A stretch of DNA of 64,000 bases, taken from assembly GCA_017448975.1 (NCBI GenBank), contig JAFSKN010000028.1, positions 2,035-66,034 on the forward strand. The letters run 5' to 3'. This stretch comes from Clostridia bacterium (GTDB lineage: Bacteria > Bacillota > Clostridia > Christensenellales > Aristaeellaceae). The notes beneath the pieces are model-generated. The model had not been told where the DNA came from and did no database searches. It saw only the letters and a list, made by a program, of their open reading frames with translations. Of this stretch, positions 31,741 to 51,347 are shown piece after piece. The position numbers and the translations under genes are program-made. How positions within the stretch are numbered: the first letter of the stretch is position 1; every line of letters starts with the position of its first letter.

Positions 31741-31783
31741 AACACGGCTGAAACCAAATTGGTTACAATTTTATGAAAAAGGA

Positions 31784-31811
31784 AAAAGAGAAAAGAGAAA
31801 AGAGAAAAGAG
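31784..31811. repeat. tandem heptamer AAAAGAG x4
   Basis: Read directly upstream of the tRNA promoter. Confidence 0.8.
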
Positions 31812-31831
31812 AAAAATATTCAAAAAAGGTG

Positions 31832-31860
31832 TTGACAAATGAGCGTCGTGCGGTTATAAT
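31832..31860 (+). promoter_or_regulatory. consensus sigma-70 promoter TTGACA-17-TATAAT for tRNA-Pro
   Basis: Perfect hexamers 36 nt upstream of the tRNA 5' end. Confidence 0.75.
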
Positions 31861-31895: not shown

Positions 31896-31972
31896 CTGGG
31901 TGTAGCGCAGCTTGGTAGCGTGCTTGAATGGGGTTCAAGAGGCCGAGAGTTCAAATCTCTCCACCCAGACCA
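31896..31972 (+). tRNA. tRNA-Pro (anticodon GGG)
   Basis: Hand-folded cloverleaf of 77 nt. Acceptor CTGGGTG/CACCCAG, anticodon arm CTTGA-ATGGGGT-TCAAG, T-arm GAGAG-TTCAAAT-CTCTC, encoded CCA. Confidence 0.9.
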
Positions 31973-31973
31973 C

Positions 31974-32008
31974 GGGAAGCCTTATGAAATAAGGCTTCCC
32001 GATTTTTT
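31974..32008 (+). terminator. rho-independent terminator after tRNA-Pro
   Basis: GGGAAGCCTTA/TAAGGCTTCCC stem followed by TTTTTT. Confidence 0.75.
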
Positions 32009-32032: not shown

Positions 32033-33169
32033 TTACAAAGACTGTATGAAAGACTCCATTTTTGAGGCACTGTCTTTCTGCATAGTCATAGTAACTGTTG
32101 CATAAACATCCATCGTGAATGCCACCGTTGCATGGCCGAGATTATTGGAAATCGTTTTGTAATCTACACCGTTTTGGATTGCCAAAGTAGCATAAGTATG
32201 CCGGAGATCATGCAGACGCACTTCCGGTAACCCCATCTTTTTCACAATGGATTTAAACCTGTTGAATACTGTTCGAGTTGCCAGATGGTGGCCGAACTCG
32301 TTTGTAAAGACAAAGTTTTCCTCATTGTGGTAGAGCGTTCCGTAATAGAGTTTCCACTCGGCTTGCTTAAGCTTCATCTTTTTCAGGGCTTTAACAACGC
32401 TGGGTGGTATAGAGAACGAGCGTTCCTGCTTATTCTTCAGCGTAGTGAAGGTGTAGGTTTTACTTTTACCGCGAAGCGCTTTGAACTGCCGATACAGATG
32501 GATCGTGCCTTTGTCTAAGTCCACACAGTCCCAAGTCAAGCCGATGAGTTCGGATTCCCTCATGCCGGTAAAGATCGCCACATAGTAGAATTCCTCAAAA
32601 GGATGCCCGTTGATGAGCCGAAGAAACTCAGGCACTTCGTTGTCCAGCAACGGGCGCATTTCCTTTTTCGGCGTCTCATACATAGGAATCTCCGCATCAG
32701 CACAGGGATTCTTTTTGACAAGGCCGTCTTTTTGCGCCCTGGTTATCGCCTTATTCAGAACAAGGTAGATATTCTTCAAAGACTTTTCGGACAATCCCTT
32801 TACATCTTTACAGCGCTTGAGGAAGCGCTGCACAGTAAGCAGCTTCAAGTCCTGGATTTGAATTTGTCCCAAATCAGGTTTGATGTGTACCCGGATATCC
32901 TGCATATATCGCTCAAGTGTGGAGCTTTTTACGCCTGATGTATAGCATTCTGCCCAGGTATCCATCCACTCACCCACGGTGATGTTGTTTTCATCCACCA
33001 AAGTCCCATTGGAATAGTCATTCTGTAATTCAGCTACTTTTTGCCGCACTTCACTTTTTGTTTTTCCATATACATTGAAACGCTTTTCATCAAGAACGAT
33101 ACGGCCTTCCCAGGAATTTGAAGTACGCTTTCTGAAGCTGCCCTCACCGTTTGCTCTTTTTGTTCCCAT
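32033..33169 (-). CDS. int: tyrosine-type site-specific integrase
   Basis: Start MGTKRANGEGS after GGAGG. C-terminal catalytic residues (..RLHDLRHTYAT.., LGHATVAFTMDVY). No TAG codons. GC lower than the flanks. Confidence 0.9.
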   Translation of the reverse strand: MGTKRANGEGSFRKRTSNSWEGRIVLDEKRFNVYGKTKSEVRQKVAELQNDYSNGTLVDENNITVGEWMDTWAECYTSGVKSSTLERYMQDIRVHIKPDLGQIQIQDLKLLTVQRFLKRCKDVKGLSEKSLKNIYLVLNKAITRAQKDGLVKKNPCADAEIPMYETPKKEMRPLLDNEVPEFLRLINGHPFEEFYYVAIFTGMRESELIGLTWDCVDLDKGTIHLYRQFKALRGKSKTYTFTTLKNKQERSFSIPPSVVKALKKMKLKQAEWKLYYGTLYHNEENFVFTNEFGHHLATRTVFNRFKSIVKKMGLPEVRLHDLRHTYATLAIQNGVDYKTISNNLGHATVAFTMDVYATVTMTMQKDSASKMESFIQSL

Positions 33170-33185
33170 GATTATTTCCTCCGTC

Positions 33186-33353
33186 TTAGAGTTGGCATTG
33201 TTCTTCCAGCCATCTGTGCAGCGCCTGAACGCTGACAATCGTTCTTTTCCCCAAGCGAAAAGCCGGGTAAAAACTCTTTTGACGTGTCAGGTTATACGCA
33301 GTTGCTCTGGAAATGTTCTACTGTTTCGCCTATTCTTCGACGGTTAGGGTCAT
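33186..33353 (-). CDS. excisionase-like HTH protein (read through 2 TAG codons)
   Basis: MTLTVEE[TAG]AKQ[TAG]NISRATAYNLTRQKSFYPAFRLGKRTIVSVQALHRWLEEQCQL. TAGs at 33330-33332 and 33318-33320. Classic Xis/AlpA-type HTH directly upstream of int. Confidence 0.7.
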
Positions 33354-33554
33354 TTTTGTTTCTTCTGTCGGAGTTATTCTGCTTTCAAGGTTCACATCGG
33401 AGTTTTCTCCGACAATTCTTTTCTATTCTGCCACTTTTATCAATCTCCTTTTCGCATTTTTGTTGACCTATAGCGCCAAAAACAATGAAATTTATGTTAT
33501 GACGCTTTTCCTTTCAAGAAAAGGGAACATAACATAAAAATCATTGTCAGGTTG

Positions 33555-34088
33555 TTACAAAGTTCTTTTCAAAATTTCTCTGTCCGTTTTCTTCAGCCAA
33601 GCTACCCCCACGGCAACAGCGTCACTCTCGTCGTTGGTGGCGTAATCCTGTTTTCCCACATACTGCTCCTATGCTGCGGCGACGTCTTCTTTGGTCGCTT
33701 TTCCCGATCCGGTCAGCAGCTTTTTCACGGTGGTCGGCGCGATTTCCTCAAACTGTGTTTTGCACATGCGCCAGGCAGCCAGGTCTGCGATGCCCACCAC
33801 CTTGAAAAGAGCCTGAGTTTCGTGCGGGAATCGGGAAAAGCCCTTTTCCCGTACGAACACCGCAACATCCGCGGAAAGTTCCGTGATCAGATCATAGATA
33901 GCCGCCAGAATTTCCCCGTGACAGAAATTCTGCCCGCGATGGTTCAGGTGACAGAGCCTTTCCACGGTGATTTTGCCGTTCTCATACCGCAAGACGGCAA
34001 AACCGGGACACCGCAAGGAGAGATCGGCGCAGAGGATGCGGAGAGAGTCTCCTTTTTTCAGCTCCTTATTGCTCATACGCCGTTTCAT
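33555..34088 (-). CDS. RuvC-like Holliday junction resolvase (1 in-frame TAG)
   Basis: ILCADLSLRCPGFAVL (catalytic Asp) .. VAAA[TAG 33669-33671]EQYVGKQDYATNDESDAVAVGVAWL. The start may instead be 34076. Confidence 0.7.
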
Positions 34089-34386
34089 AGGCGAACATGC
34101 CCCGCAGGATGGCGTGCGCCAGATGATCGTCTGTCTGATCTCCGGCCAAATAAGCGTACAGGTGCTGGATGGCGTGGTTTACATGCTCCTCGGTCGGGAT
34201 TTTCTTGTAGTTCCGATCCTGGAGAGACTCGTGATACTTTTCCGCGCCGTATTTGGCCGTTTCCGCCGCGGCAAACATGGCGTTGGGCGGCAGGAAGTGA
34301 AAGGCGTATGGCGTGGCAGACTGTGCGCCGCCTCTTTCGTTGACCACGGTGGGCGCGTCGGGCTGAACGCCGGTGATGATGGGCAT
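34066..34386 (-). CDS. dATP/dGTP pyrophosphohydrolase-domain (MazG-like) protein
   Basis: FLPPNAM..AKYGAEKY..HLYAYLAGD..DHLAHA pattern recalled from the phage dNTP pyrophosphohydrolase family. No TAG. Confidence 0.55.
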   Translation of the reverse strand: MPIITGVQPDAPTVVNERGGAQSATPYAFHFLPPNAMFAAAETAKYGAEKYHESLQDRNYKKIPTEEHVNHAIQHLYAYLAGDQTDDHLAHAILRGMFAYETAYEQ

Positions 34387-35042
34387 TATTCCGCCGCCTC
34401 CCCTCTCAGCAGGCTGTCAAAGCAAATCGCGCTCCAGGATTCCATGTGACCAGCTTTTCTGGCTTCCTGTAACTGCTTCACCGTGAACCAGTCGCCCATC
34501 AGCTTGTCTTTTTCCAGACAGGAAATATCCTCCCGATCAGTAGAAGTATGATAGATGAGGCCCAGATGAACGTGGTCAACCTCCGTCAGGGTGCTGGACA
34601 GAAAGCCGCACAGGGCAGCATCCGTGATTTCGTCCCGATGGAGTCCCACTTCTTCTTCCAGTTCCCGGTAAAGGGTGTCCAGAACGCTTTCTCCCTCGTC
34701 CATGTGTCCGCCCAGACCGATGCTGTTCTGGCCCAGCAGACGCTCATCCCCACCGATCCGGGTAGTCATGTAGATGCGGCCTGTAGGACGGTGCTCCACG
34801 ATCACATAGGGAATGACCTGCTTGAATTCCGGGTCAGATTCCGCTTTCCAGCGCGGCATAGCGGTCAAATGCTGTTCAATCACTTCCTGAAGCGCACAGT
34901 ACTCGTTTCCATCCTCGTCCGGCTCCAGGATTTTGGGATTGAAACCTTCTTCCTATAGCCCGTCCACCCATTTGGCTTCGATACCCATGATGACCGTGTC
35001 TCTGTATTTCGCTTTGTATTCGTCAGGCGTCATGTTCTTCTT
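34386..35042 (-). CDS. NUDIX hydrolase (1 in-frame TAG)
   Basis: Nudix box GLGGHMDEGESVLDTLYRELEEEVG. N-terminal extension MTPDEY..WVDGL[TAG 34953-34955]EEGFNP. Confidence 0.75.
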
Positions 35043-35511
35043 TCCTCCTCTGAAAATGCTCGGTTTCGTCGATCAGTTTTCCATGTTCTACCCGGTAAAA
35101 CCGCTGATTTGTCGTCCCGCTGTCCAGCCCGCCCAGGTTTTCATCATAGTGACCGATTTTCAGGTAATCCAGTAACGATAGGAACTGCTCAAACGACTGA
35201 ATGCTGTCGCAGCCGCTGTACAGGCAGGTTTTCTATCCAAATCCTCTGACGATTTCCAATGCCTGCCGCTATTCCGAGGGATTCTGACCTTCCCCCATGA
35301 AACACACGCAGGAGATAAGCCCTGCATACGTGCGGATCAATCCCGGCAGGGCTGGCAGCAGCAGTTCTCCCTTGTCCTCCCACAAATAGGGTGAATGGCA
35401 GCCGGAGCAGCGGAAGACGCAGTTGGAAACAGCGATCGTCAGGCTGACTTCCTTTGGCGCCTCCGCCAGCGTCACGGCGTATTCCATGTACCGCAGGGGT
35501 GTCTCAGTCAT
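35032..35511 (-). CDS. nrdG: anaerobic ribonucleotide reductase activating protein (2 in-frame TAGs)
   Basis: Radical-SAM-like Cys cluster (CVFRCSGCHSP), ..GEGQNPSE[TAG 35269-35271]RQALEIVRGFG[TAG 35233-35235]KTCLYSG..LDYLKIGHY..TNQRFY. Confidence 0.8.
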
Positions 35512-35749
35512 CCGGCCCCTCATAGCGGATATAACAGCCATCGCAAATGCGCTGCCCGTCCAGCGTGATGATGTGGCTGCCGGTGATCCAGCCGCCGCAG
35601 ATGGAGCAGGGATAAGCGTTGCGCAGGCTCACCCCGCCGCAGTAGGGACACATGCTGATTTTTTCGTAGGGCGGCGTGTCCAGCCCATGCTTTTCTTCCG
35701 CCTCTTGGGGCTGTTCAAATGTCCGCCCGCATTCCGTACAGATCAGCAT
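35504..35749 (-). CDS. zinc-ribbon protein, unknown function
   Basis: Four CxxC-type pairs (CTECG, CPYCG, CSICG, CDGC). Start MLICTEC 9 nt after GGAGGA. No TAG. Confidence 0.5.
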   Translation of the reverse strand: MLICTECGRTFEQPQEAEEKHGLDTPPYEKISMCPYCGGVSLRNAYPCSICGGWITGSHIITLDGQRICDGCYIRYEGPDD

Positions 35750-35940
35750 ACGGTCACATCCTCCGGCTATTCGATGTACTGCCCGCAGTCGCAGCCCTTC
35801 CCCTCCCGGAACGTCTGGCAGGGACATTTGTTTTCCGGGATGTGGCGCGGCTTGTTGGGACAGTAGCCGTTGTTCTGCCGGATGCGGCGTTTCAGATTCT
35901 TCAGAAACACCGTATCGGGATTCTTAATCACCCTGCCCAT
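35743..35940 (-). CDS. small Cys-rich protein, ferredoxin-thioredoxin-reductase-catalytic-like (tentative); TAG 8 codons before TGA
   Basis: YCPNKPRHIPENKCPCQTFREGKGCDC has CPC-x8-CxC spacing, as recalled for the FTR catalytic subunit. TAG at 35767-35769. Overlaps the nrdD 3' end. Confidence 0.4.
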
Positions 35941-37801
35941 GACTTGCCTCCAGACCCTTTGCGTAGTACCGCTGGTGTTCTTCCTCCTGCCGTGCCTCCG
36001 CGAACCGGGATACCAGCTTCAGATAGCCAATGACCCGCGTGGCGTAATCCAGGCTTCGGCTGTGACACTTGGGGCACTCGTCCAGGCGGTGCTTGCTGAT
36101 GTAGCCGCACTTTTTACAGAGGGTGTTGGGGATGTTGAAGGTCAGGTAATTGCAGCCGGTTCGGATGGCGGCCTTCAGCAGCAGGGCGTACTGTTCATTG
36201 GTCAGATGCTCGTCCAGGTTGATATGGCAGGCGGAACCGCCGTCCAGATATTTGGTAAATGCGCGGCCGTGCAGCTTTAATTTGTCCAGCACATTCACCT
36301 TGGGATCTTCTACCCGGAAGAAATAGCTGTTGTAGCAGTCCCGGAGCACGAACAGCTTGTCCGCCTTATCCCAGGCGGCATTTTTGACGCCCAAGGATTC
36401 CGCAGGTACGAGTTCGGTATTGAACAGGATGCCATCCTTCCGTGCCTTGCGGTTAGCCTCGTAGATCGGCTGCAATACCGCTTCGGCATAAGCGATATAC
36501 TGGGGACTGTCCGCGTCGATCTCGATGCCCAGGGCTTCCGCGCCTTCCAGGAAACCGTTGACGCCCACGGTCAGATACTGCTTCTCCGGGGAAACGAAGC
36601 CCGCGTCATAGACCGGCAGCAGGCCGGCGGCCTGACGCTCCTTCAGGATGGCGTTGAAGGCCAGCAGGTACTTGTGAACCTTCTCCACCATCTGCGTCAT
36701 GTCGTCCCGGACGTCCTGCAAGCTATTGTCCCAGACGGCGTTCTGCACCAAACGATTGACATTGATGGTCATGACGCACTTGCTGCCCGTGGCAACGCCG
36801 CCAGCGCCTAATGTGTAAGAAAAGGTATTGTCCGGCAGTTCATTTTTCTACCGACAGCACGATGCCAGCGAATCCACCGAATCGGAGCGGTACACGAAGA
36901 AGCTGTGTCCTTCCGCCCACATTTCCGCCACGAAGTCAGCCCATTCCTGATCCACGAAATCCTCGCCGTTGTCCAGCAGGTTCACCGTTTCCACCGGGAA
37001 GGTCAGCAGCTTGCGCTTCCGTTCCTGATTGAACCAGCGCATGAACCGCTTTTGAAGCCAGGACACCGATTCCCAGTGCATCTTGGTGCCATCCGGAAAG
37101 AAAAAACTCTCAAACATCCCATAGAAGTACGGCTGGTCAAAATAGGCGATATTCCAGAAGCAGGACTGATTTCCGCGGGCGGCAGCAGGCTGATTGATGG
37201 AATATACCACCTGCTCAAAGGCGTCGGTGATCACCTTATCCATGGTGCGGTGGCGAGTGGATAAATCTACGACCTCATCAGGGCGTTGGTAATAATCGTC
37301 ACCGTACTCCTTGCGGATGAAATAATCCATGTAGCTGAGGAACTCCGGTGTGGAAATGGCCCCGCAGAACTGGCTGGCCAGGGCGAATACCAGGTTGATG
37401 AACGCGCCGCAGAAGGAGGAAAGGTTCTTGGGCGCTTCGCTGGTGCCGCCGATACAGGTATTGCCATAGAACAGAAAGGGATACAGGGTCACGCTGGCAC
37501 AGTAGGGCTTGCCTAAAATACCTACTTCGTCGTGCCGATACAGTTCATGCTCCTCCAGCTGCCGCAGGTATTCCTCGGCGGTGTTGGTACCGTACATCTC
37601 CTGGAGCTTCCGGTACATTCCCAGGCGGTTGATGGCGACGGCGTCCGCCTTGTAGATTTCCGTTTCCAGGGTGGCGATGTTCTTGTTTTCCACGTTGGCA
37701 TTGGGATCGACCTCGCTGCCGGTGGCGGCATTGGATGCCTTTCCATAGCGGTCAATGAAGCTCTAATGCCGGCTGTGATCGGTATATTTGTCAATTCTCA
37801 T
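35924..37801 (-). CDS. nrdD: anaerobic ribonucleoside-triphosphate reductase (2 in-frame TAGs)
   Basis: 625 codons once ORFs 36848-37693 and 35924-36772 are joined: ..SLASCCR[TAG 36848-36850]KNELPDNTFSYTLGAGGVATGS.. Glycyl-radical C-terminus ATRVIGYL. N-terminal TAG at 37763-37765. Confidence 0.9.
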
Positions 37802-38432
37802 TTTGCCCATCCTTTCTGCTGTCCTCGATGGAAATGCCATCGAAAATAATCGGTATTCTTTCTTTGGCCTGCTCCAGCAGCAGCGCCATCTACGCCCGCA
37901 TTTCCGGGTAAGCCGCCGGATCGGTGCGGAGCGTGAAGATGTGCAGCCACTCCCGCAGGTTGGCCTTCATGATGATTCTTGTTGCGGTGGAATTGGGCTA
38001 CACCTTCCGGGCGTCCTCCGGCTTAATGCCGTGAGCCAGCATATCGTGATAAACCTTTTCCGCGTCCTCCATGCACTTCCGCCAAAGCCCGGAAGCCCAG
38101 GAGCCTTCCCGATAGAACAGGGGCCGCACAAAGGAAATCTCCCCGCTCATGTTCACATACCGCTGGCTTTCGATGCAGAAGCTGGCCAGCCTGTGCCGGG
38201 TAAGCTCCGCCATCACATCCCGGGACGTGATCTATTCCACCGTCATGCCTGCAAACTCCACAGGCGATAGATGGCCCCGTTTCAACAATGCTTCTACAAA
38301 ACGCGGCGCGCTGTCCTCGGTGATTTTGGCTTCCGAACGGTAACAGTTTCGGCCTGCCTGCTCAATCTGGCGCAGCGCCTGCATTCCGTCCTCCGGGGTG
38401 AGGATACGGGCAGATTGCTGAATGATCTTCAT
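37791..38432 (-). CDS. thyX: FAD-dependent thymidylate synthase ThyX (3 in-frame TAGs)
   Basis: RHRLASFCIESQRY ThyX motif. TAGs at 38232-38234, 37998-38000 (ARKV[TAG]PNSTAT) and 37890-37892. Confidence 0.85.
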
Positions 38433-38785
38433 TCCGCTTCCTCCGTTTCCGACGCTTCTTCTGCTTCAGTGCTCATGCTGGCCTCCTCATCCTATTTCGC
38501 TTCTGCCTCTGCTTCCGCTTCGGATGGCATATCGCCATTCAGCCGCGACATCATGGTGCGGTAGGTCAGCCCGCAGCCGATCACCGTGCCGCCGTCCAGC
38601 ACCAGCACGCTTTTCGTGGCCCGGCCAAAGGTCATATCTACAAACTGGCAGGGCTTGGCTTCCTTAGCCGCCCGGATCTATCGCCGGGCGCTGGCGGTCT
38701 GTGGATTGAGTACCATGGAAACCCGGTTGGCGCAGACCACATGGCCAAAGCCGGCATGGATAAACCGTAATGGGATCGTGTTCAT
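38429..38785 (-). CDS. RemA/DUF370-like protein with acidic tail (2 in-frame TAGs)
   Basis: IHAGFGHVVCANRVSMVLNPQTASARR[TAG 38678-38680]IRAAKEAKPCQFVDMTFGRATKSVLVLDGG matches the RemA pattern recalled from Bacillus. Second TAG at 38492-38494, before the Glu/Ala tail. Confidence 0.6.
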
Positions 38786-38823
38786 TTCTTGCCTCCTTCA
38801 TATTTTTCGCGCGGGAAGCGCGT

Positions 38824-38908
38824 TGGTAGGAGCAGCGGGATTTGAACCCGCACGCCGTAAGGCAAAGGTTTTAGAGACCTCCGCGTCTGCCAGTTCCGCC
38901 ATGCTCCC
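38824..38908 (-). tRNA. amber suppressor tRNA, anticodon CUA, on a tRNA-Leu (type II) scaffold
   Basis: Hand-folded, 85 nt. Acceptor GGGAGCA/TGCTCCT, D-arm TGGCGGAACTGGCAGACGC, anticodon arm GAGGT-CTCTAAA-ACCTT, long variable arm TGCCTTACGGCGT, T-arm GCGGG-TTCAAAT-CCCGC, discriminator A73, encoded CCA. Confidence 0.9.
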
Positions 38909-38944
38909 CCGGTTCAGCCAGAGATGGACCCTGGCTGACGCGGA

Positions 38945-41900
38945 TCACGGGATCAGCTCATAATCTGTGATCCACAGGTCGAACATATCGGAACGGGGAC
39001 GCGCCTTGCCGTCGATAAACTGATACGCGGGCCGCCGATCCCAGGAAATCAGGCGGAGGATGGCTCCCTCCGCAATGGGCTTTGCCTGGAACAGCGCCTT
39101 TTTGAGCTTCATGACGCCCGTGTGTCCCGTGGACAGGCTGCACAGCTTCACCTTGGGGCTGTAGCGCTCGTCCACCTCCAGCACGGCGTACTCGCTTTTC
39201 AATTTCGGGAACAGGGAGACCGGAGTACCGCAGTGGTCGATCTCAAACCGCGCCTGCTCATGGGGCGGAATGGTTTCCTCCGGCAAACTTCTCTCGATTC
39301 CGCGAAGAACGCGCAGCCGCGCTTCCCGGGTCTTAGGGATATGGGCTTTGGAGAAGTGCGATTCCCCTTCCCGGAATTCCCGGTACATCTTCTATAGCTT
39401 TCCGTTCCCGCCGAACTCCCGGAAGTAATCCAGCCGGATGAGAATTTCGATCACCTGGGAATCCAGGGCGGGATGCAGCTCCATATCGTACAGCAGATCG
39501 GTAAAGCAGGCATAGAAGCCATCGCGCATGGCGTACAGCGCCTCGGCCGCCTTGCGGCTGATGTGCTTTACCGACGTCTATGCGTCGGAAATCGTCCGGG
39601 CTTCATGGTCGATGTAAAAATCCCGGTTATCCTGCCTGAATTTGCAGGGAACGATGCGGATGCCGAAGCCCTTCCGCATTTCTTCCTTGGCAAGGGATAT
39701 GCGGTCTTTGTCTCCCTTGGCGGCATAGCCGGAGAGCAGGGTGGTGTAGTATTCCAGGGGATGATGGGCTTTCAGCCATGCGCCGTAGAGGCTGTCCAGG
39801 GCGACGCAGACGGCATGGCTGGAATTATATAAATAGCTGGTCGCGTCCTCTATGATCCTCCAGACCCTCTCAGCGGCCTCCGGATCGCTCTTGGCCGCAA
39901 AACCCTCCAGAAATCGCTGCTTCAGGGGCAGCACCTTTTCCGGGTGCTTTTTCCCAATGGCCTTGATGGCCGCATAGGATTCCGGCGCAGAAAACCCGGC
40001 GTGCTGAAGCGTTTTCATCAGCTGCTCCTGAAACAGGATGAAGCTGGACGACATTTCCCGGGTCTGGATCAGGGTGTCGAAGGCCGGAATGCCGTAATCA
40101 AAGTGCTTCCGGGCCAGAAAGATGGGCAGCATGGATTTGAAGGCAGGACGTACCGCCGCCACAAAGGCAGCCAGCTCCGTAATGTTTTTCGGCTTGTACT
40201 GCATCACCTTTTCCCGCGTTTTTGGCTGCTCCACCTGGTTCAGCCCCATAGTCAGTCCTTCCGCGTACATACGCCACGTCTCCTTATCCTGGGCTGTGAG
40301 CCGCAAAAGCTCGTTCACATCCGGCTGCTCCATCCCAATGCGTTTGAAAGCTTCGTTATTGGTTTTCACCACTTCCACCAGAAGCAGGTCATTCTTTAGA
40401 TATCCGAACTGCTCCGCCGTCGCGCCGTCGATGAAGGCAGCGTAGACCGTCTTTTTCCTGGTTCCCTTGCTGTTGATGCGGATGATCCCGATTTCCCTGC
40501 GGATGTCCTCCCTGCACAGCAGATAGGCGCAGGGATGCGGGGAAATGGAGTCGATCACGCCCATGTACTGCTCGCTGGCGGCGGCCAATTCCCGGTATTC
40601 CTCCGGGATATAGTCGGAAAGGGCGATTTCCTCGTCGTCCTCCGCATATTTGACCGCTGATTCGTAGGCTTTCAGCTTGTCCCCGATGCTGTTGGCGATA
40701 TCGAAGGAAAGATTGGAAGCCCGGCAGTACATTTTCCAGGCGGAAAGCCGCTTCAGGGTGCCATAGGCGATCATAGGAGCGCTGCGCCACTCTCCTAAAA
40801 CCTCTGCCTGGGCTTCCTCAAAGGCTTCCCGGTTGGCTACGTTCATGTCGATATCCGGCAGGCTGCCGGACAGGATTCTGTCCGCCGAAATGAACCGATC
40901 CGGGAACATTTCCACAGGGATGGCGAAGCGGTCAATGGAGGACAGGCCCAGCAGGGAGTTGGTGTAGTAGCTGGGTGCGCTGCCGCGTCCCGTTTTGGTG
41001 ATGATGCCGCCTTTTTCTACGGAGCGGCGCACCAACTCGTGATCCAGTAGGAAATAATCGCTCATGCCGGTGGAGGTGACCACATCCGTTTCGTATTTCA
41101 CACCTTTCGCACGGACACTCTTTTCTTCCTTCGTCATACCAGCGGTTTGCTGTTCAAAAGCGGCGTTCACCAGATCGAGATACTTATGATTCCGTTCCTC
41201 CTGTGTCAGTTCAGGATAGATGGTGGGCAGCTTTTTGCTCTTGTCGAATTCCACATCCTCGAATGATTCAAAGATGCGGGTATTCTCCATGGCCTCCCGG
41301 ATTTGCGCGTCGGAAAGAACGCCCTGCCGCTGAAAGCGCTGAAACGCTTCCGCGCCGGAGGGATAATCCATATACCAGCCGCCTTCGTCCTCGTAGAGAA
41401 TGTGGTTGGCTTCCAGCCGCTGCTGCCGAAGGGTGGCGTCCCGCGGATGGATATAATGACTGTCGGTTCCCATGATGAGGGGAATGCCGTGTTTCCTGTA
41501 CAGGCCCAGCAAGAATTGGTTGACCTCTCGCTGCTTGTCCGTGTCGTGATACTGCACTTCCTACATGAAGCTGTCCCGAAAGTGCTTTGCGAAACGGAGG
41601 ATCAGGCGTTCCGCCTCCTCCCAGCCGTACTTGAACACCCCGGCAATGCAGGCCGTGGTCACAAACACATCCTGCGGGTCAAGGGCCAAAAGCAAATCCA
41701 GATCGACACGGGGGCGGTAATAGTACCCGCTGATGTTGGCTTCGGAGAGGGCGAAATTCAGGTCGCCGACACCCTTCCGCGTTTTAGCGGCCAGGATGAT
41801 GTGACAGTTGGCGTTATCCTTTTCCCGCCTGTCCTTCACGAAATAGGCTTCGCTCACATACCGCCACCGCAGGCCGTATTTCTTCGCCAGCTCGGAGCAC

Positions 41901-42109
41901 TGCCAGTAATTGCCCTGGGTGCCGTGCTCGCAGGAGGAAAGAATGGTATGCCCCAATTCTACGGCGCGCTTAACGTAATCTTCGTTGGTCACCACGCTGT
42001 CGGTCAGCATCACGTTGCTGTAACAGGAATGCCGGTGATAGCAGGCGTAGGGAATTTCCTTTTCTTCTGACGCTGCGGACAGAGGGACGGGCTTTTCCTA
42101 AAGTGTCAT
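38945..42109 (-). CDS. dnaE: DNA polymerase III alpha subunit (4 in-frame TAGs)
   Basis: 1054 codons once three ORF fragments are joined. PHP domain (YHRHSCYSN..), ..RDSFM[TAG 41561-41563]EVQYHDTD.., pol core, ..TISDA[TAG 39578-39580]TSVKH.., ..GNGKL[TAG 39392-39394]KMYREF. A TAG at codon 4 (42098-42100) applies if the ATG at 42109 behind AAAGGAG is the start. Confidence 0.9.
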
Positions 42110-42115
42110 AACGGA

Positions 42116-42889
42116 TTACTCCTTTATCCCGGAATGAATGATTTCTTCGCCCACAGGACAATGCAGGCGGGTGGAGCAGATGAAACGGCAGAAATAGCCG
42201 GAGGAAGAAACCAACCAATCTTTTTCTTCTTTTATCGCTCGGATCGTCTGATCGATCCAGTCCATGGTTTCATCGTACCGGTCCATGGAAAAGGGCTCGT
42301 CGATGAATGTACCGTAGCGGAACATATTGAACCGCAGCATGGATGGGTATTCTCCGAACCGTTCCTTCACATACGCGGCGTAAGTGTATAGCTGCCGGGT
42401 ATTGGCGAACAGCTCCTTTTTCATGGACTGCATGGACTTGGATTTGTGGTCGATGACGATGATGCCGCCATCACGCCTGTCCCTCAGTACCAGATCAGCG
42501 ATGCCCACAAAGGGATTGCCACGGATATCCAGTTCAAACCTTTCCTCCACGGACAGGATTTCCATATCCTCCCCAAAGCCGTCGAAGGACAGGAAATACT
42601 GCTTCCCTTCCTCAAAGTATTTTCCGGCCAAGCCCCGGGGAAAGGGCGGAAAGTAATGCCTGACCGCCTCGTCGTACTCCGCTTCATACCTGTCCGCCAG
42701 TTCAAAGGACAAGAGCTCCCCTTTTGCCCAGCGCTCCAACAGGCTGTGGCAATGCGAACCGTACTCCGCGTAAGCGTTTTGCTCCTGGGGAACATGATCA
42801 ATGTATTGCAGCTTGAACGCCAAAGAACATTGATCAAATAGCTGCTACTTGCTGAATGACCATTTCATGTCATGCGGTATATCACACAT
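42116..42889 (-). CDS. PD-(D/E)XK nuclease, Cas4/RecB-like with 4-Cys cluster (1 in-frame TAG)
   Basis: MCDIPHDMKWSFSK[TAG 42845-42847]QLFDQCSLAFKLQYI.., IADLV..VIDHKSK, C-terminal CRFICSTRLHC. Confidence 0.75.
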
Positions 42890-42899
42890 ACTACCTCCG

Positions 42900-44690
42900 T
42901 TAAAAGGGATGCGCCGCCTCCGCCATCTGCACTGCGTATTCCGGCAGGCTGTCCGCCCGGGGATTCGGTGGTGTGACGCCCTCCCTGTTCCACGAGAATG
43001 TATTCCTGTCGCCCTTGTCCGCCTGATAGATCCTGCGGCTGTCCGGGCAATAGCAGCACTCGATCAGCCTGCACACGCCGCCTTCCCGGTTTTTCAGCAC
43101 CCGCAGGTTGGGACGCTCCACGACGATGGCGCTGTCCGCCTATCGGATGGTGGCGCTGCTGCCGCCGATGTCATCCTGGCCCAGCTTTTCGCCCTGCTTC
43201 ACCTTGCGGGGATGGGCCACCAGCAGCACATGGACGTGATACCGTGTGGCGAACTTTTTGAGGGCGTTGGCGAACTTGCCCTGGGCTTTTGTTTCCTCGT
43301 CCGAATCGGACAAAGCGGTCATCAGGTTGTCCGCCAGGAACAGCTTGCAGCCGTACCGCCGCGCCGCCATCTGGAAAACCTTCAGGATGCTTTCCGATTG
43401 GTTCACTTCAAAGATTTCCTGGTTGTCAAAGAGATAGAATTTGTCCCGATAGTAATCCATCTACCGTTCCTGCACGGCATACGGCACGGTGGGCACTTTG
43501 ATGCCGCGCACCGGGTCATACCGAAGCCCAATGTATTCCGAACCCGCAGCCTGGAGATTGATCCACTCCTGGAATTTCTCTTTGGTCAGTTCTCCGCTGT
43601 AGGCGCAGACGGAATATCCTTGTTCGATAGCGGTGAGCAGCAGTTGACCGGATAAGACGCTTTTTCCTGCCCCTGGCCGGCCTGTGAATACCGTCATTGC
43701 CCCTTCCGCCTATCCGCCAATCAATTCATCCAGCGCCGGGATCATGGTTTTGATTCGTGGAACGGTGGTAGGATCGTAAGGAACCACATCCGACTACTGA
43801 ATGATTCCCTTGACAGGCACCGGCTGAGCGGCGTCCAAGGTCTCCTGAAGCGTTTCCGGCCCATAATAGAACAGGATTTCGTTGGCGTCCTTGCAGGGTG
43901 TGCCGTCCGGTTTGTCTGGGTATTCCTCCACCACCATACACCGTGCTTCATCCAGCCGCCGCACAGCCTCCCGCACCATTTTTCTGCCCGGCTCGTCGCT
44001 GTCCCCGAACAGGATGATCGTCTGAAACTTCTCCAGCCAGTCCCAGCAATGGTCGATCCAATCCAGATTGGTGCAGCCGCAGGGAACGGACACCGCGTTG
44101 CGGATTCCCACCTCATACAGGGAGAGCGTGTCGATCTGGCCTTCCGTGATGATCAGGGGCTGGGAGAAGGAGCATAAATCCATGCCGAACAGAATGGGCC
44201 GGGTGTTGGAAGCCTGCCACTCCTTTTTCTCCTTGGGCTGGGGCTTGCGCGGCGCCCGGTATTTCACATATTCCTATGTTCCGTCCCGGAAGAAAGGAAA
44301 AACAATGTTGCCCTTTTCATCCGCCCCCAGCCGGAAGGTTTCCAGCGTCGCTTTTGATATCTTCCGTTTCTCAAAGTACAGGATGATTTCTTCTGTCAGC
44401 GGCTTTAGTTCCACATCCGGGAGCGCAAACTGTTTTCTTGGGGAGGCGGCGGGACGGAGAAGCTCCGCCCGCTCGCCAAAGTGTTCCGCCAGGGTCTCGA
44501 ACCGTCCCTTGACCCCGCATCCGCCACGCTTGCACACATACACGCCATCCCGCAGGTTCAGTGCGAAGGTGTACCGGTCATGGCTGTCGCCGCCGTGACA
44601 GAAGGGGCAGTAATCCGGGATGAGCTCGTCCCCGCGCAGCCGGTATGGGGTCAGGTGCGCCGCGGCGAACCTCAGAATGTCAGCCTGCAC
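42900..44690 (-). CDS. bifunctional primase-helicase, T7 gp4-like (5 in-frame TAGs)
   Basis: Zn finger CPFCHGG..CKRGGCG, TOPRIM (ITEGQIDTLS, FGDSDEPG), and helicase Walker A LDELIGG[TAG]AEGAMTVFTGRPGAGKS. TAGs at 44274-76, 43794-96, 43710-12, 43461-63 and 43140-42. Confidence 0.85.
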
Positions 44691-45234
44691 AGGGACACGC
44701 CTCCGAACAGCATTGATAGCGCCGTCCCATTTGAAAAATGCGGCGGGATATCTGGCTTTCGCTCAAGCCCACGGCCTGGCTGATTTCCTTCTAAGAGCAG
44801 CCATCCAGCCGCATAACAAGGATTTCGCAATCTTGGCCGGATAAATCATGCAAGAAACGTTCCGTGTCCACGTCGCCGATCACCTGATCCTCCATCTGCA
44901 CCGCTTCATGCTGCACGGCTGGTACATCCAGGGACAGAATGAACACCTTCCTGATTTCTACCCGGAATCTGCGCTGTGGAATGCTCACGGCCGCCATCCT
45001 GCGCACATACTCTCCCAGGGCGTGGATAACGGCATAATAGCAGTTTTCCGCTTCCTCCAGGGTATCGGCGGCACGGAGCAGGAGCAGCAGCGCCTACCGC
45101 GCTTCCTGGCGTAGATCCTCCGTATTGTCGGGATACCGCCTGCCCGCTTTTTGCTGATACCGGCGCACGAGCCTTTGAATATCCCTCTCATGCTCCTTCA
45201 GGAATTGGGCTTCCTGTTCCATTGTCATGTTCAT
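44680..45234 (-). CDS. sigma-70 family (ECF/phage-type) sigma factor (2 in-frame TAGs)
   Basis: Region-2-like EDLRQEAR[TAG 45094-45096]ALLLL and region-4 HTH LSGQDCEILVMRLDGCS[TAG 44791-44793]KEISQAVGLSESQISRRI. Confidence 0.55.
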
Positions 45235-45247
45235 GCGCTCCCTCCTG

Positions 45248-45613
45248 TCAAATGGGCAGATCGTCTTCGGGTGGGGCGGGCGGAGCAGCCTGCGTCTTTT
45301 GCGCCGGAAGCTCCATGTCCGTGATACTCACCTGAACGGAGGTACGCTCCACACCGTTTTTGTCCAGATAGGGACGGATGACCAGATCGCCCACCACGGT
45401 GATCTTATCGCCCTTGTGCAGGTACTGCATGGCGATCTCGGACAGCCGGCGCCAGGCGCTGCACCGATAGAAATTGGTGATGTATTCGCCCTTGGCGTCC
45501 TTAGTGCGGGTATCCGCCGCCTATGTGAAGGATGCGCAGGGAACGTCGCTCACCTGGGAAAGAACAGGATCAGCCGTCAGACGCCCTGCGGCAGTCAGTT
45601 TGTTTACGCTCAT
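45248..45613 (-). CDS. ssb: single-stranded DNA-binding protein (1 in-frame TAG)
   Basis: OB-fold N-terminus MSVNKLTAAGRLTADPVLSQVSDVPCASFT[TAG 45521-45523]AADTR.. and an acidic tail ..PPEDDLPI. ATGA overlap with the upstream gene. Confidence 0.8.
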
Positions 45614-46641
45614 GCTTCAGCCCCCTTGAATTCGTCATAAATCGCCTGGAGAACCCTTTCGTCAACGATTGCCCGGTAATTGGCGGTGCCGCCGGTAATG
45701 GCCCGCATCCGCTGGGCGATCTTCTCCCTTTCCTCCTGGGTAATATCCGTGCAGCAGGCTTTCATCACCGCGTCCACCTTTTCAGCCAGGGTCCGGGTAT
45801 CCTCCTCTGAAGAAGGCGGTTCAGGGTTCGATTCAGACGGCTCCTTGTTTTGTTGCTTCACTTGCGGCTTTTCCGCCGACGGCGCAGGCGCGTTCTTGTC
45901 CGCGTCGCCCAGCCAGCCCGCGATTTTCGCGCCGGTGTCCGGGGTGATCACGAAATACTGGCCGTCGAACAGGCCGGTACGATCCTTGGTGGCGGCTGCG
46001 GAATGATCCTGGGCCAGCTCAAAGAACACGCTGAACTCGTACTCCAGCCCTTCTCGGAAAATAGGTGCCATACCCACCTTGCGGGGCGCTTTCTTGCCCT
46101 GCCCGTTGTCCTCGATGACGTACTCCGTCTTGGTGCGCAGGGTAGCCGCCACGTGCATGGGGCATTGCAGGATCTTGTCCACCAGCTTATTGTGCAGCGG
46201 GGTCACATCCCGCCAGGCGGTATAGCCGTTGCCGCTGCGTTTGGCGATGTTGGCCTGCATATCCAGCAAGCCGCCCTCGCCGGACCAGGCGTGGGACAGG
46301 GAGTCGATGATCAGGAACTCCACCCCCGCGTCCTCCGCCGCTTCGATGGCTTCCAGATACCTGGCTGCGCTGAACGGCGCTTCCAGGGCGATGGCCAGGT
46401 ATTCTCCGATCCGGGTACCGCCCACCACAGTGCCCACATATAGGCTGCCGGAGCCGTTCTCCGTGTCGATGACGCAGATTTTCTCCCATACCGCCTCATT
46501 GGAGATGCCGGGATGCACCGCCCGAACCTACCCGAAGCCCATGAGCAGGGTGCTCTACGTTTTCCCGCTGCCGGAGCTTCCCGCCACGCCGATCTTGAGG
46601 CGCGCCATCTGCCGTTTCGCTTTGACGATTTGAATAGCCAT
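45610..46641 (-). CDS. RecA-like AAA ATPase (Sak4-type recombination protein) (2 in-frame TAGs)
   Basis: Start after GGAGGG. Walker A GSSGSGKT[TAG 46555-46557]STLLMGFG[TAG 46528-46530]V.., Walker B FLIIDSLS. Confidence 0.7.
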
Positions 46642-46852
46642 TTTCAATCCCTCCATTCATTTTGGCCTTCATAATATAAGAGATGCAATTTTCGCGATTT
46701 CTTGCATCGCCGGCCAAAAATATTTTTTGCACACTCACCGTGAGTCTGCATCTGATGGGCCCCATTATAACAAAGGCGGAAATCCGCCGCAATGTGGAAC
46801 TTTTTTCGCGGAGGAAGTGAAAGTGTCATATGGTAAGCATTTCTTCTCAACG

Positions 46853-46888
46853 AAAAAAAGCCCCGCCCCACAGCTTGTGGAGCGGGAT
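46853..46888 (-). terminator. rho-independent terminator after the hydrolase gene
   Basis: On the minus strand, an ATCCCGCTCCACA/TGTGGGGCGGGGC stem followed by TTTTTTT. Confidence 0.6.
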
Positions 46889-46917
46889 GTAGCTTTCCAA
46901 GAGATCATAAATCTCTT

Positions 46918-47886
46918 TTACCTCACCGGCATATACCGCTCAAGATACGTTTCGATGGCTTCCATCCACTGTCTGTTCACCGTGTCGTCGTTTTGCAGTC
47001 CATGCCCGGAATGGGGCAACTCAAAGTACTGAAAATCCACATTGTTTTCTTCCAGCGCTGCTTTCAGGCGCAGAGAACCAAGATAGGGCTGAACCTTATC
47101 GCAGGTTCCATAAGCGACAACGGAGGGAACAGGATTGCTGCTGACCCATTCCGCGGCAGCAATGGGCTTGACCTTTTCCAGATACGTTTTATCCTGAATC
47201 TCCTGTGCCGTGATTTCAACGCCCGCCATGACGCTGAACATCCCAGCGCAGGCTTCATCGTTCTGATCCAGCCCGTAAATGCCCCAATCTTCCTGATAGA
47301 AGCAGGAGGGACCGACCGCCCCGAACGTCAGGACAACAGGGACAGGCGCTTGGGCGCCGTCACGATAGGTGTAAATCATGGCAAGGCAATGTCCTGCTGA
47401 ACCGCCTGCCATGGTCAGCTTATCAATGTGATACCCGGCCTTTTCAGCTTCCTCGATCACAATTGGAATAGCCGCTTTTATCTCGTTGGACTGAGAAAGG
47501 ACGCTGGCGCTGTTGACATCTGTCCGTAAGGTGTAGTTGATACCGGCGGCCACATAGCCCTTACTGCACAGCCAGGAAAGCATCTCTTTGTCGCCTGCCT
47601 TGTCCCCGGAAGTAAAACCACCAGCATGAAGATAAACCACCAGTCCGTAGCTGGCATGTGTATTGTCCTTCGGCAGATACAAGTCAAACTTGTTCGCTGC
47701 CCCTTCGCCGTAATCAAGATCGGTTTTCCGTGTTCCGATCTCGTCGCTCCACTGGATAGCGTACTGCTTTGCCCAGGCAGGTTTGATGAAGACTTTCGAG
47801 GCTGCTCCGACAATAACAGCCAGAATAAAAACCAGAATTCCCAGCCAAATGGGCACGGCTTTCACCTTCTTCTCTCTTTTGCTCAC
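46918..47886 (-). CDS. alpha/beta hydrolase (esterase/lipase type) with N-terminal TM anchor
   Basis: HGGG-like YLHAGGFTSGD and nucleophile elbow AGGSAGH. Lower GC than neighbours. Confidence 0.75.
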   Translation of the reverse strand: MSKREKKVKAVPIWLGILVFILAVIVGAASKVFIKPAWAKQYAIQWSDEIGTRKTDLDYGEGAANKFDLYLPKDNTHASYGLVVYLHAGGFTSGDKAGDKEMLSWLCSKGYVAAGINYTLRTDVNSASVLSQSNEIKAAIPIVIEEAEKAGYHIDKLTMAGGSAGHCLAMIYTYRDGAQAPVPVVLTFGAVGPSCFYQEDWGIYGLDQNDEACAGMFSVMAGVEITAQEIQDKTYLEKVKPIAAAEWVSSNPVPSVVAYGTCDKVQPYLGSLRLKAALEENNVDFQYFELPHSGHGLQNDDTVNRQWMEAIETYLERYMPVR

Positions 47887-48146
47887 AGGAAATTCCCTCC
47901 AAACAGCATACCGCCCAGCAGCATATTCATGAAAGCCCTGACCGCCAACCGTCCGAGAACAAATCCGATAACGACCAGCGCCGCGATTACAATGATTCGT
48001 TTTGCCTCAATTGACATTTTGCACTCTCCTCCCATTTGATTCTTGACAGATTCAGCACTGTGTGCTATTCTTGATTTGCTAAAACATTTGTTTTAGCGAT
48101 AATGATTGTATCAGCAAGTGGCGCTGTTGTCAATGGGAGGAGCAAA

Positions 48147-48683
48147 ATGGAACAAAAACGCAAAACTGTATCACCGTTCAGCAATGAAGCCAGGAACGCC
48201 TATGTGGTAGAACATATTACGGATTCACTATTGACAAGACTGAAAGAAAAGCCGCTGGCGGATATTGCCATCAGCGAGCTTTGCGATGCGGCGGGGGTCG
48301 GCAGAACGTCCTTTTACCGCAACTTTGAATCCAGAGAGGATATTGTTAGAAAATATATTCGCGGGCTCCTGAACGGCTGGAAGCACAATTGGGATGCCAC
48401 GGGCGAAGAATCTAACGCTAAAATGTACGGAAGCCTGTTTCAGTATTTGAAGGAGAATGCGGATTTATTTCTCATGCTAAAGACACGCGGCTTGATGTAC
48501 CTTTTCCTCGAAGTCTTTATGGAAATCTGGGGGCCAAGGCCGGAATATGAAAACATTTGGGCCTATACTACAGCCTTCATCGCCTATGGAACCTATGGCT
48601 GGATTGAGGAATGGATCAATCGTGGTATGCAGGAATCCGCTGAGACGATGTCGGAGATGCTTTTTTCGCATGGTATGAAGTAA
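48147..48683 (+). CDS. TetR family transcriptional regulator
   Basis: HTH ISELCDAAGVGRTSFYRNFESRED. Start 7 nt after GGGAGGAG. Confidence 0.8.
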   Translation: MEQKRKTVSPFSNEARNAYVVEHITDSLLTRLKEKPLADIAISELCDAAGVGRTSFYRNFESREDIVRKYIRGLLNGWKHNWDATGEESNAKMYGSLFQYLKENADLFLMLKTRGLMYLFLEVFMEIWGPRPEYENIWAYTTAFIAYGTYGWIEEWINRGMQESAETMSEMLFSHGMK

Positions 48684-48786
48684 AATATATCGTTGTTAAA
48701 CCGCAAATATGAAATACATTTTCCTTGTAATTCCTATATGCTTTATGTATAATGGACGTGGAAGAATAATGGGAGGTTGACGTTCG

Positions 48787-49245: not shown

Positions 49246-49283
49246 GTAAAAAAACAAAAGAAAAAACAGAAAGGGGCATCACC

Positions 49284-49562
49284 ATGAACAAGCGCGAACT
49301 CATCGAAACAGTATCCTCCAAAGCGGAAATCACAAAGAAAGAAGCTGATGCGGTCGTCAATGCGACCCTGGACGCGATCATTGAAGGACTTGCCTCCGAA
49401 GGCAAGGTGATCATCCCCGGCTTCGGTTCCTTTGAAGTGCGGAACAAGACCGCCCGTGAGGCCCGCAATCCCCGTACTGGCGAAAAGATCAAAATTGCCG
49501 CGAAGAGAGCGCCTGCGTTCAAGCCCGGCAAAGCGATGAAAGACGCCGTGGAAAAGAAATAA
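49284..49562 (+). CDS. hup: HU family DNA-binding protein
   Basis: MNKRELIETVS.., ..FGSFEVRNKTAREARNPRTGEKIKIAAKRAPAFKPGKA. Confidence 0.9.
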   Translation: MNKRELIETVSSKAEITKKEADAVVNATLDAIIEGLASEGKVIIPGFGSFEVRNKTAREARNPRTGEKIKIAAKRAPAFKPGKAMKDAVEKK

Positions 49563-49577
49563 GGAGCGGGCATAGGA

Positions 49578-50129: not shown

Positions 50130-50195
50130 CATATTTCGGTTAATCAAAGGGCTGCCGCAGAAAAAAACATCTGCGGCGGTTCGTTCATTTCCCAC

Positions 50196-51337: not shown

Positions 51338-51347
51338 CCCTCCTGCG

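Follow-up and report, generated by a model that had tools for sequence, protein, structure and literature searches.

We examined a stretch of 64,000 nucleotides (nt) from a Clostridia bacterium (GenBank assembly GCA_017448975.1, contig JAFSKN010000028.1; called the window throughout) and found that a 13.5-kb module on its minus strand, 33186-46641, uses the amber codon TAG as a sense codon, which alignments with related genes assign to leucine (Leu) rather than glutamine (Gln). In the explanation that we favour, and hold to be highly probable, the module belongs to an integrative element of ~44 kb at a tRNA-Pro gene of its host, an uncultured Clostridia bacterium of the ruminant gut. The element would have two coding regimes, one of them a replication operon in which TAG stands for Leu and which comes with its own tRNA-Leu-derived tRNA with anticodon CUA, here called tRNA(CUA).

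The gene chain on the minus strand of 33186-46641 was re-derived with TAA and TGA as the sole stops. With these stops, 15 back-to-back genes and one tRNA fill the region at a coding plus tRNA density of 96.4%, and all 15 genes terminate in TAA or TGA. The coding frame contained 28 internal TAG codons, distributed over 13 of the 15 genes, and no TAA (0) or TGA (0). The other two frames of the same DNA held 153 and 107 stops, with TGA predominating. Translation table 11 splits the same coding frames into 41 fragments and lowers the median product from 184 amino acids (aa) to 60 aa. The features of this block, in the direction of transcription, were as follows; the tyrosine integrase and the host tRNA-Pro come after the last of them.

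45610-46641, minus strand: Sak4-like AAA_24 ATPase, the first recoded gene (AAA_24 8e-19, residues 15-222; 2 TAG, 46555-57 and 46528-30).
45248-45613, minus strand: single-strand DNA-binding protein SSB (Pfam SSB 7e-21; 1 TAG, 45521-23).
44680-45234, minus strand: sigma-70-family factor, region 4 (Sigma70_r4_2 2e-5, at 24.5 bits slightly under the Pfam gathering cut-off of 25.7 bits; 2 TAG, 45094-96 and 44791-93).
42900-44690, minus strand: primase-helicase, Toprim plus DnaB-like (Toprim_2, AAA_25, and DnaB_C at residues 313-529; 5 TAG, 44274-76, 43794-96, 43710-12, 43461-63 and 43140-42).
42116-42889, minus strand: PD-(D/E)XK (Cas4-like) nuclease (PDDEXK_1 2e-19, residues 9-245; 1 TAG, 42845-47).
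38945-42109, minus strand: DNA polymerase III alpha, DnaE-type (Pfam PHP, DNA_pol3_alpha, finger and HHH_6; 4 TAG).
38824-38908, minus strand: suppressor tRNA, anticodon CUA, 85 nt (ARAGORN; Rfam tRNA 54.4 bits).
38429-38785, minus strand: RemA-like DNA-binding regulator (RemA-like 1e-14, covering residue 36; 2 TAG, 38678-80 and 38492-94).
37791-38432, minus strand: flavin-dependent thymidylate synthase ThyX (Thy1 8e-46; 3 TAG, 38232-34, 37998-38000 and 37890-92).
35924-37810, minus strand: anaerobic ribonucleotide reductase NrdD (NRDD 5e-91; 2 TAG, 37763-65 and 36848-50).
35504-35749, minus strand: small Cys-rich protein (open reading frame, ORF; 0 TAG).
35023-35511, minus strand: NrdG-like activase (CX3CX2C motif and adjoining NrdD; no Pfam family at E <= 0.01; 2 TAG, 35269-71 and 35233-35).
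34386-35033, minus strand: NUDIX hydrolase (Pfam NUDIX 5e-10; 1 TAG, 34953-55).
34066-34386, minus strand: dATP/dGTP diphosphohydrolase N-terminal domain protein (PF18909 4e-15; 0 TAG).
33555-34088, minus strand: RuvC-like resolvase (Pfam RuvC, residues 24-162, covers residue 140; 1 TAG, 33669-71).
33186-33353, minus strand: excisionase-like HTH_17 protein, Xis (HTH_17 1e-10 over both TAGs, 33330-32 and 33318-20).

A sequence-only reading of the same DNA had proposed that TAG is read as sense in this module, with no in-frame TAA or TGA, no frameshift and every reconstructed gene ending in TAA or TGA, and had suggested comparing TAG-as-sense prediction with table 11; all of this agreed with our re-translation. 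Its DnaE positions (41561-63, 39578-80 and 39392-94) were correct and are joined by a fourth at 42098-100 (codon 4), its NrdD position 36848-50 by a second at 37763-65. The three TAGs of ThyX and five of the primase-helicase were counted correctly, and at least one TAG was found in each of NrdG, SSB, the Sak4-like ATPase, the sigma factor, the RemA-like protein, the Cas4-like nuclease, RuvC, NUDIX and Xis, as it had listed. The total of 29 TAGs in 14 genes changed to 28 in 13; 29 is reached if Xis starts at an upstream GTG at 33434. The TAG that had been attributed to the small Cys-rich gene is wrong, as none occurs anywhere in the TAA/TGA-delimited frame of 35504-35749.

Profile searches on the read-through proteins, a check which that reading had also suggested, gave single Pfam matches that cross the TAG positions: NRDD over residues 57-615 (5e-91), Thy1 over residues 19-194 (8e-46), and likewise PHP, HHH_6, SSB, AAA_24, PDDEXK_1, DnaB_C, RuvC, HTH_17 and RemA. 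The identical sequence was recovered in many independent assemblies and is thus not an assembly artefact. A decaying prophage remnant, with the TAGs as inactivating nonsense mutations, would also show genes fragmented under table 11, and NCBI lists a piece of DnaE as a 659-aa 'hypothetical protein'. We give decay next to no probability, since all 28 of the stops are TAG and there are no frameshifts, among elements whose DnaE identity ranges over 65-93% the TAG sites are kept or swapped with Leu codons, and a matching CUA tRNA is conserved with compensatory changes. Stops that are exclusively TAG, homology that continues in one frame, and relatives with TAG or sense codons at the same sites together show, at the level of sequence comparison, that TAG is a sense codon in the recoded block.

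The identity of the amino acid was examined first in DnaE. The DnaE search returned ~4,350 homologues, with two kinds of relatives among them, full-length TAG-free homologues (58-66% identity) and many closer ones that are cut by table-11 calling. In an alignment of 74 full-length standard-code homologues with three alignable TAG columns, Leu was present in 74 of 74, 73 of 74 and 70 of 74 sequences, the last column having methionine in the other 4 (94-100% Leu). The table-11-predicted database relatives stop exactly before columns with Leu in the homologues or in the window's own protein.

We also compared the window codon by codon with seven related loci. At the TAG sites of the window these loci showed TAG 57 times and sense codons 77 times, and the sense codons were Leu in 66 of 77 cases (all six codons), isoleucine in 4, another amino acid in 7 and Gln in 0. 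The RuvC site is CTG or TTG in relatives, NrdG-like residue 93 is TTG, TTA or CTG, the NUDIX site keeps TAG in 4 relatives, and all five primase-helicase sites carry TAG or Leu codons. In the reverse direction, TAGs of the relatives face Leu codons of the window in 33 of 51 cases. Solved structures gave the same assignment: a TAG of NrdD aligns with the Leu of motif ASCCRL in PDB 4coi, and PDB structures of ThyX have Leu at the ARxVLPN site that is aligned to TAG (ARAV-L-PN).

The DnaE columns, the codon alignments and these structures show that TAG corresponds to Leu in the recoded block, and the suspicion of the sequence-only reading that the amino acid is unusual fits this, Gln being what is usually assumed for phage TAG. 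For phages, the literature that we found describes a single new meaning of TAG, which is Gln (genetic code 15; crAss-like, Lak, Garnet and Topaz phages), and annotation tools assume it by default (PMC11210395, PMC8008677, 10.1101/2021.08.26.457843). A Gln reading is nevertheless very improbable here, with Gln at none of the 77 aligned sense codons against Leu at 66, with DnaE columns of 94-100% Leu, and with a suppressor tRNA whose long variable arm and tRNA-Leu D-arm are unlike tRNA-Gln.

TAG makes up 28 (7.2%) of the 389 Leu-family codons among the 4310 codons of the recoded block. The base directly after TAG was a purine in 24 of 28 cases, compared with 60% of codon first bases overall (P = 0.003). 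A purine after TAG is the context that favours suppression by amber suppressors in E. coli, and the bias suggests selection for efficient read-through.

The tRNA(CUA) gene occupies the gap between DnaE and RemA in the orientation of the operon, separated from the DnaE stop by 36 nt and from the RemA start by 38 nt. The tRNA belongs to type II, having a long variable arm (12-13 nt), A73 and an encoded CCA end. Its D-arm passes the tRNA-Leu test (3-bp D-stem, GGAAYUGGCAGAC D-loop), and positions 8-27, which cover this arm, are identical at 19 of 20 positions to tRNA-Leu(UAG) and tRNA-Leu(CAG) of related Clostridia and at 9 of 20 to tRNA-Tyr. The best annotated matches in phage records were all tRNA-Leu. 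A search against E. coli genomes gave no match, and a pattern search of IMG/VR for the suppressor tRNA matched solely the contig of L001, the closest relative in that database.

The tRNA(CUA) was found in every relative examined (seven). It lies just downstream of DnaE in six of them (L001, L004, L005, L006, L008 and L009), while in L003 insertions put it ~9 kb from DnaE, where it still adjoins RemA-ThyX-NrdD. Among seven tRNA homologues, 14 of 24 cloverleaf pairs showed compensatory changes and the anticodon loop CUCUAAA was invariant. The long variable arm, A73 and the 19/20 identity of the D-arm identify tRNA(CUA) as a derivative of tRNA-Leu. Leucyl-tRNA synthetase (LeuRS) does not read the tRNA anticodon, and this, together with the identity elements of the tRNA and Leu at the TAG sites, leads us to infer that the host LeuRS charges tRNA(CUA).

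ARAGORN labels the gene 'tRNA-Pyl', which would make TAG a pyrrolysine (Pyl) codon, and some Clostridia encode Pyl systems. The program gives this label to any tRNA with anticodon CUA, so it mirrors the anticodon only. In tRNA-Pyl the variable loop is only 3 nt long and the D-loop is small, whereas the tRNA of the window has a 12-13-nt variable arm and a normal D-loop. No pylS or pylBCD turned up among the element genes in Pfam and PHROGs scans, and the TAGs fall on conserved structural Leu residues such as those of ASCCRL, FMLEVQ and ARxVLPN. Pyl can be set aside with hardly any reservation.

The use of TAG changes along the element. The features that bear on this change were as follows.

32033-33238, minus strand: tyrosine integrase (Pfam Phage_integrase 7e-25 plus SAM-like domains; 0 TAG in 401 codons; ends in TAA), with its true start likely the ATG at 33169.
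46764-46887, minus strand: boundary between the code regimes (terminator plus candidate promoter).
50196-64000, minus strand: TAG-free early block, which continues ~12.3 kb past the window.
62939-63157, minus strand: early gene ending in TAG (62939-41), with an in-frame TGA 8 codons on.

The early block comprises 33 genes with 6761 codons, of which 629 are Leu codons, and no in-frame TAG (0); its stops are 23 TGA and 10 TAA. If the TAG share equalled that of the recoded block, such an absence would have P = 4e-21. The gene ends were also checked separately for 30 called genes on contig L012. The gene at 62939-63157 is the sole early-block gene with a TAG stop, and the TGA that follows, which overlaps the GTG start of the next gene, has the look of a reserve stop that would end translation while the suppressor is at work. 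The early block holds an ArdC-type anti-restriction gene (58497-59363), a reverse transcriptase, orphans of 810 aa and 721 aa, and many small acidic proteins.

At the boundary, the esterase gene upstream of the recoded block ends in a strong intrinsic terminator (46887-46861), and a possible extended -10 promoter, TGTTATAAT, lies at 46772-46764, ~120 nt before the Sak4 start. Codon usage on its two sides shows the boundary between the TAG-free and the TAG-using block to be sharp.

If the whole bacterium read TAG as Leu, beyond the element, TAG might not act as a stop in it at all. This would fit the sampled host genes (window 1-31800, L021 1-7000, L029 1-4100), of which 0 of 39 end in TAG, with 21 TGA and 18 TAA; TAG stops may be scarce in this host, or the sample may simply be too small. 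The host genes, on the other hand, read intact under table 11 at a coding density of 89% and contain no in-frame TAG, and the sole CUA tRNA lies within the mobile element. Among 23 genes of related Clostridia hosts, 4 end in TAG. The early block and the integrase of the element avoid TAG, which is sensible only if TAG is unreadable at entry. We consider a host-wide reassignment quite improbable.

In the explanation of an element with two coding regimes, the early block and integrase, having no in-frame TAG, would be readable by the unmodified translation apparatus of the host, and entry, anti-defence and integration functions would be independent of the code switch and readable in a naive cell. 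The operon from Sak4 to Xis uses TAG as a Leu codon and encodes the replisome (DnaE, primase-helicase, SSB, Sak4 and nucleases), the supply of deoxynucleoside triphosphates (dNTPs; NrdD/G, ThyX and NUDIX), the sigma factor, the RemA-like regulator and the excisionase. The tRNA(CUA) would be made only upon transcription of this operon, since its gene follows the DnaE stop by 36 nt on the same strand and is probably co-transcribed. Host LeuRS would charge it, and the charged tRNA would compete with release factor 1 (RF1) for UAG and place Leu there. Cells lacking tRNA(CUA) would make truncated products from 13 of the 15 genes, and replication, nucleotide synthesis, the sigma and RemA regulators and excision would depend on the element's own code switch.

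Several points weigh against this explanation. No RF1 countermeasure was recognised in the element (no release factor and no aminoacyl-tRNA synthetase), and it is puzzling how the five TAGs of the primase-helicase would be read efficiently without one. The tRNA(CUA) gene lies inside the operon that it unlocks and outside the TAG-free early block, so the 'lock' would be opened by transcription alone, which weakens a strict timing role. The tRNA of the window has a G1-U72 pair, unusual for an acceptor stem. The TAGs of relatives face non-Leu codons of the window in 18 of 51 cases, some of which may be due to crude stop-to-stop ORFs and poorly conserved regions, and Leu is assigned from alignments and from features of the tRNA. 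The absence of TAG among the 36 Leu codons of the integrase is not significant by itself (P = 0.07), and the Sak4 promoter TGTTATAAT was read by eye only and was not called by the consensus scan.

The absence of an RF1 countermeasure also speaks for a rival reading that has two forms. In one, TAG is suppressed only in part and the sites are attenuators, tuning how much of each product is truncated and how much is complete, in place of a full reassignment; in the other, the TAGs arose by neutral drift from TTG or CTG after a co-transcribed suppressor had come to exist, with no regulatory role. This rival would agree as well with TAG being only 7% of Leu codons, and with TAG being one base from TTG, which relatives often have at the matching sites. 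DnaE and the primase-helicase, however, with 4-5 TAGs each, can be made at all only if every one of these is read through efficiently, TAG is often kept at the same site among relatives (57 alignments), and the purine bias after TAG suggests selection for efficient read-through. We regard this rival as unlikely, though deserving more weight than decay, Gln, Pyl or a host-wide code, and it bears on the purpose of the recoding and not on the decoding itself.

The recoded module is the downstream third of the ~44-kb element. Two further features are needed for its extent.

31896-31972, plus strand: host tRNA-Pro(GGG), attachment site (ARAGORN, Rfam).
46695-48708, no strand assigned: cargo insertion, absent from L001, with an alpha/beta-hydrolase (46918-47886, minus strand) and a TetR regulator (48102-48683, plus strand).

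The element starts directly after the 3' end of tRNA-Pro, with the integrase immediately downstream, and for this reason we take tRNA-Pro as the attachment site. The tRNA-Pro has a promoter (TTGACA-17-TATAAT, 31832-31860) and a terminator hairpin with a T-run (31973-32001). An A/G-rich simple repeat, (GAGAAAA)n, lies at 31770-31815, just upstream of that promoter. No repeat of the tRNA-Pro 3' end was found inside the window or at the far border. The far border was placed by comparing the flanks of L021 and L022: outward of L021 position 7067 the flanks differ between genomes and contain ordinary metabolic genes. This puts the border ~12.3 kb past the window end and gives an element of ~44.4 kb from tRNA-Pro 31972. 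The ENA contig L012/L021, with 100% identity to 53159-64000, extends the element past the window.

At 85% nucleotide identity, L001 matches the window over 33595-46695 and again over 48708-52385, and only ~190 bp separates these blocks in it. It is collinear across both, so the recoded module is part of a larger element. The esterase (alpha/beta-hydrolase)/TetR insertion falls exactly at the junction of the TAG-free and the recoded blocks. The layout of the element is the same in its relatives, which were found in metagenome-assembled genomes of uncultured Clostridia from rumen, sheep gut and goat gut. Relatives end in large serine recombinases (L001 18670-20286, L008 16575-18269, L005 18225-20456), not in a tyrosine integrase and Xis; in that of L001 the first TAG is at the extreme C-terminus and may be a real stop.

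No match to a terminase, portal, capsid, tail or lysis gene was obtained over the 44 kb in three scans (Pfam on the module, precomputed Pfam beyond the window, and PHROGs on most of the larger early genes). Divergent capsid genes may be present among the small orphan proteins. In these scans the element did not come out as a complete tailed prophage (Caudoviricetes). The neutral term of the sequence-only reading, an integrated module, was apt in this respect, since 'prophage' is not established with no recognisable virion genes. A walk along the IMG/VR contigs for a late or virion module found no virion genes on any contig. The DNA upstream in L001 holds a CI-like repressor, followed by low-GC sigma/anti-sigma genes and an insertion sequence (IS) element, and we assign it to host or cargo DNA; downstream of DnaE, L003 has IS elements, a group II intron and cargo, and then tRNA-RemA-ThyX-NrdD. 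An integrative and conjugative element was tested for as well, and Pfam and PHROGs gave no match to a relaxase, coupling protein, VirB4-type ATPase or type IV secretion; the ArdC-type anti-restriction protein is the only conjugation-associated family found in the element. Among GenBank phages there was no DNA match and no annotated relative, the best protein identity being 41% (Bacillus siphoviruses).

With no virion, packaging or lysis matches in 44 kb, we call it a phage-like integrative element: a putatively self-replicating one that may be a satellite, a defective lineage or another class. A wider picture, which is possible and on the doubtful side, is a family of virion-less self-replicating elements in ruminant-gut Clostridia, either satellite-like or a new class of replicon, in which reading UAG as Leu through the co-transcribed suppressor would gate the replisome, dNTP synthesis, the sigma factor and the excisionase, while the integrase and the genes for entry and anti-defence would stay legible in the standard code. 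In this picture the host lineage may have purged its TAG stops as a response, and the elements may depend on a helper phage or share their code with one.

Other parts of the element showed features of their own. NrdD of two relatives (L005 12295-15399 and L032 1654-4605) has 983-1034 aa, compared with 628 aa in the window; the extra sequence starts right after the SCC motif, at the place of the window TAG 36848-50, and looks like an intein. A second, XerC-like tyrosine recombinase (50196-51227, minus strand) is TAG-free and lies far from the element ends. Three genes at 48787-50129 on the plus strand run opposite to the rest (a helix-turn-helix protein with a Lys/Ala-rich tail, an HU-like protein and a flavin-reductase-like protein) and may be expressed in the integrated state.

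Neither Pfam nor PHROGs matched the 810-aa orphan (52998-55430, minus strand), and a set of 5.8 billion proteins yielded only 11 homologues. The AlphaFold model of the orphan (mean predicted local distance difference test score, pLDDT, 81) shows ~600 aa of helical repeats and a C-terminal GNAT-like fold, and on this fold we rejected it as a hidden portal, capsid or terminase. The fold matches were weak and of GNAT type (E about 0.02), including AtaT-type toxins. AtaT-type toxins acetylate aminoacyl-tRNA, and a link of the orphan to translation through the AtaT-like fold of the model would be pure speculation. Downstream of the reverse-transcriptase gene, L012 has ~2.5 kb of non-coding DNA (3350-5870, ~3.6-6.1 kb past the right end of the window) with at least 10 copies of ATCGTAAA-N4-TGAAG..GCGCAAAG, spaced 185-630 nt apart and interleaved with hairpins. 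This repeat motif does not occur in the window; promoters, non-coding RNA units or retroelement parts are candidates for what it is.

The changes of stop-codon meaning that we found described in phages were TAG to Gln and TGA to tryptophan or glycine. The closest systems are the TAG-recoded prophages Garnet, of Prevotella, and Topaz, of Oscillospiraceae, whose hosts use the standard code and whose integrases are free of TAG (Borges et al., 10.1101/2021.08.26.457843). Like these, the present element is integrated next to a host tRNA gene and has in-frame TAG in most genes of its recoded block and none in its integrase; the host genes around it are intact under table 11, but none of the 39 sampled ends in TAG. 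It also encodes a suppressor tRNA, which is common among the alternatively coded phages of Borges et al., and the logic proposed for Garnet and Topaz is similar, with standard-code genes first and recoded genes awaiting a code switch. Unlike Garnet and Topaz, where TAG is treated as Gln, TAG here corresponds to Leu through a tRNA-Leu derivative. Those are 24-kb phages with capsid, tail and lysis genes in which recoding is argued to control late or lytic genes, whereas the recoded genes here serve replication, nucleotide metabolism, regulation and excision, with no virion or lysis genes found in 44 kb.

Code 15 was validated by metaproteomics in crAss-like phages (Peters et al., PMC9523058), and Lak megaphages have been described as well (PMC6784885). 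Both differ from this element in that their TAG is Gln, their hosts are Bacteroidota, and they are virulent with full virion modules. In the literature searched there was no case of TAG to Leu in a phage or mobile element, subscription coverage being incomplete and an earlier mention possible.

The same decoding is familiar from two other settings. The E. coli supP suppressor is an amber suppressor tRNA-Leu in which CAA has become CUA and which inserts Leu at UAG. Like it, the tRNA of the element is a tRNA-Leu with CUA in which A73 and the layout of the D-arm are preserved. The supP mutation arose on the chromosome, in the laboratory or spontaneously, and suppresses only in part, whereas here a conserved gene of a mobile element has dozens of essential codons dependent on it. 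In genetic codes 16 and 22, TAG is Leu in chlorophycean and Scenedesmus mitochondria. The meaning of TAG is the same, but these codes are genome-wide, unrelated, confined to eukaryote organelles, and neither conditional nor block-wise.

Stop recoding in phages and prophages is thus already known, as TAG to Gln and mainly in late genes; what appears new is that TAG has become Leu, and this in the replication operon of an integrative element in which no virion genes were recognised. Virus pipelines such as prodigal-gv, geNomad and Pharokka-gv translate recoded TAG as Gln, and elements of this kind come out either in fragments or mistranslated. In public annotation the 659-aa stretch of DnaE between two TAGs (39578-41557, IJP78_05960) stands alone as a 'hypothetical protein', and dozens of DnaE relatives in the set of 5.8 billion proteins are cut at Leu positions, so that the family is mis-annotated in a systematic way. 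A naturally evolved tRNA-Leu(CUA) that would work alongside RF1 is relevant to genetic-code engineering and to the security of amber-recoded 'firewalled' organisms against mobile elements.

The finding would add Leu to the natural meanings of amber in bacterial mobile elements, and would do so by a simple route, since LeuRS ignores the anticodon and one anticodon change in a copy of a tRNA-Leu suffices. Code switching in phages would then not be tied to glutamine. Recoding of a replication and excision program would widen the idea of the code as a regulatory lock beyond the timing of lysis, and the sharp boundary between TAG-free and TAG-using genes within one co-oriented array makes this idea directly testable.

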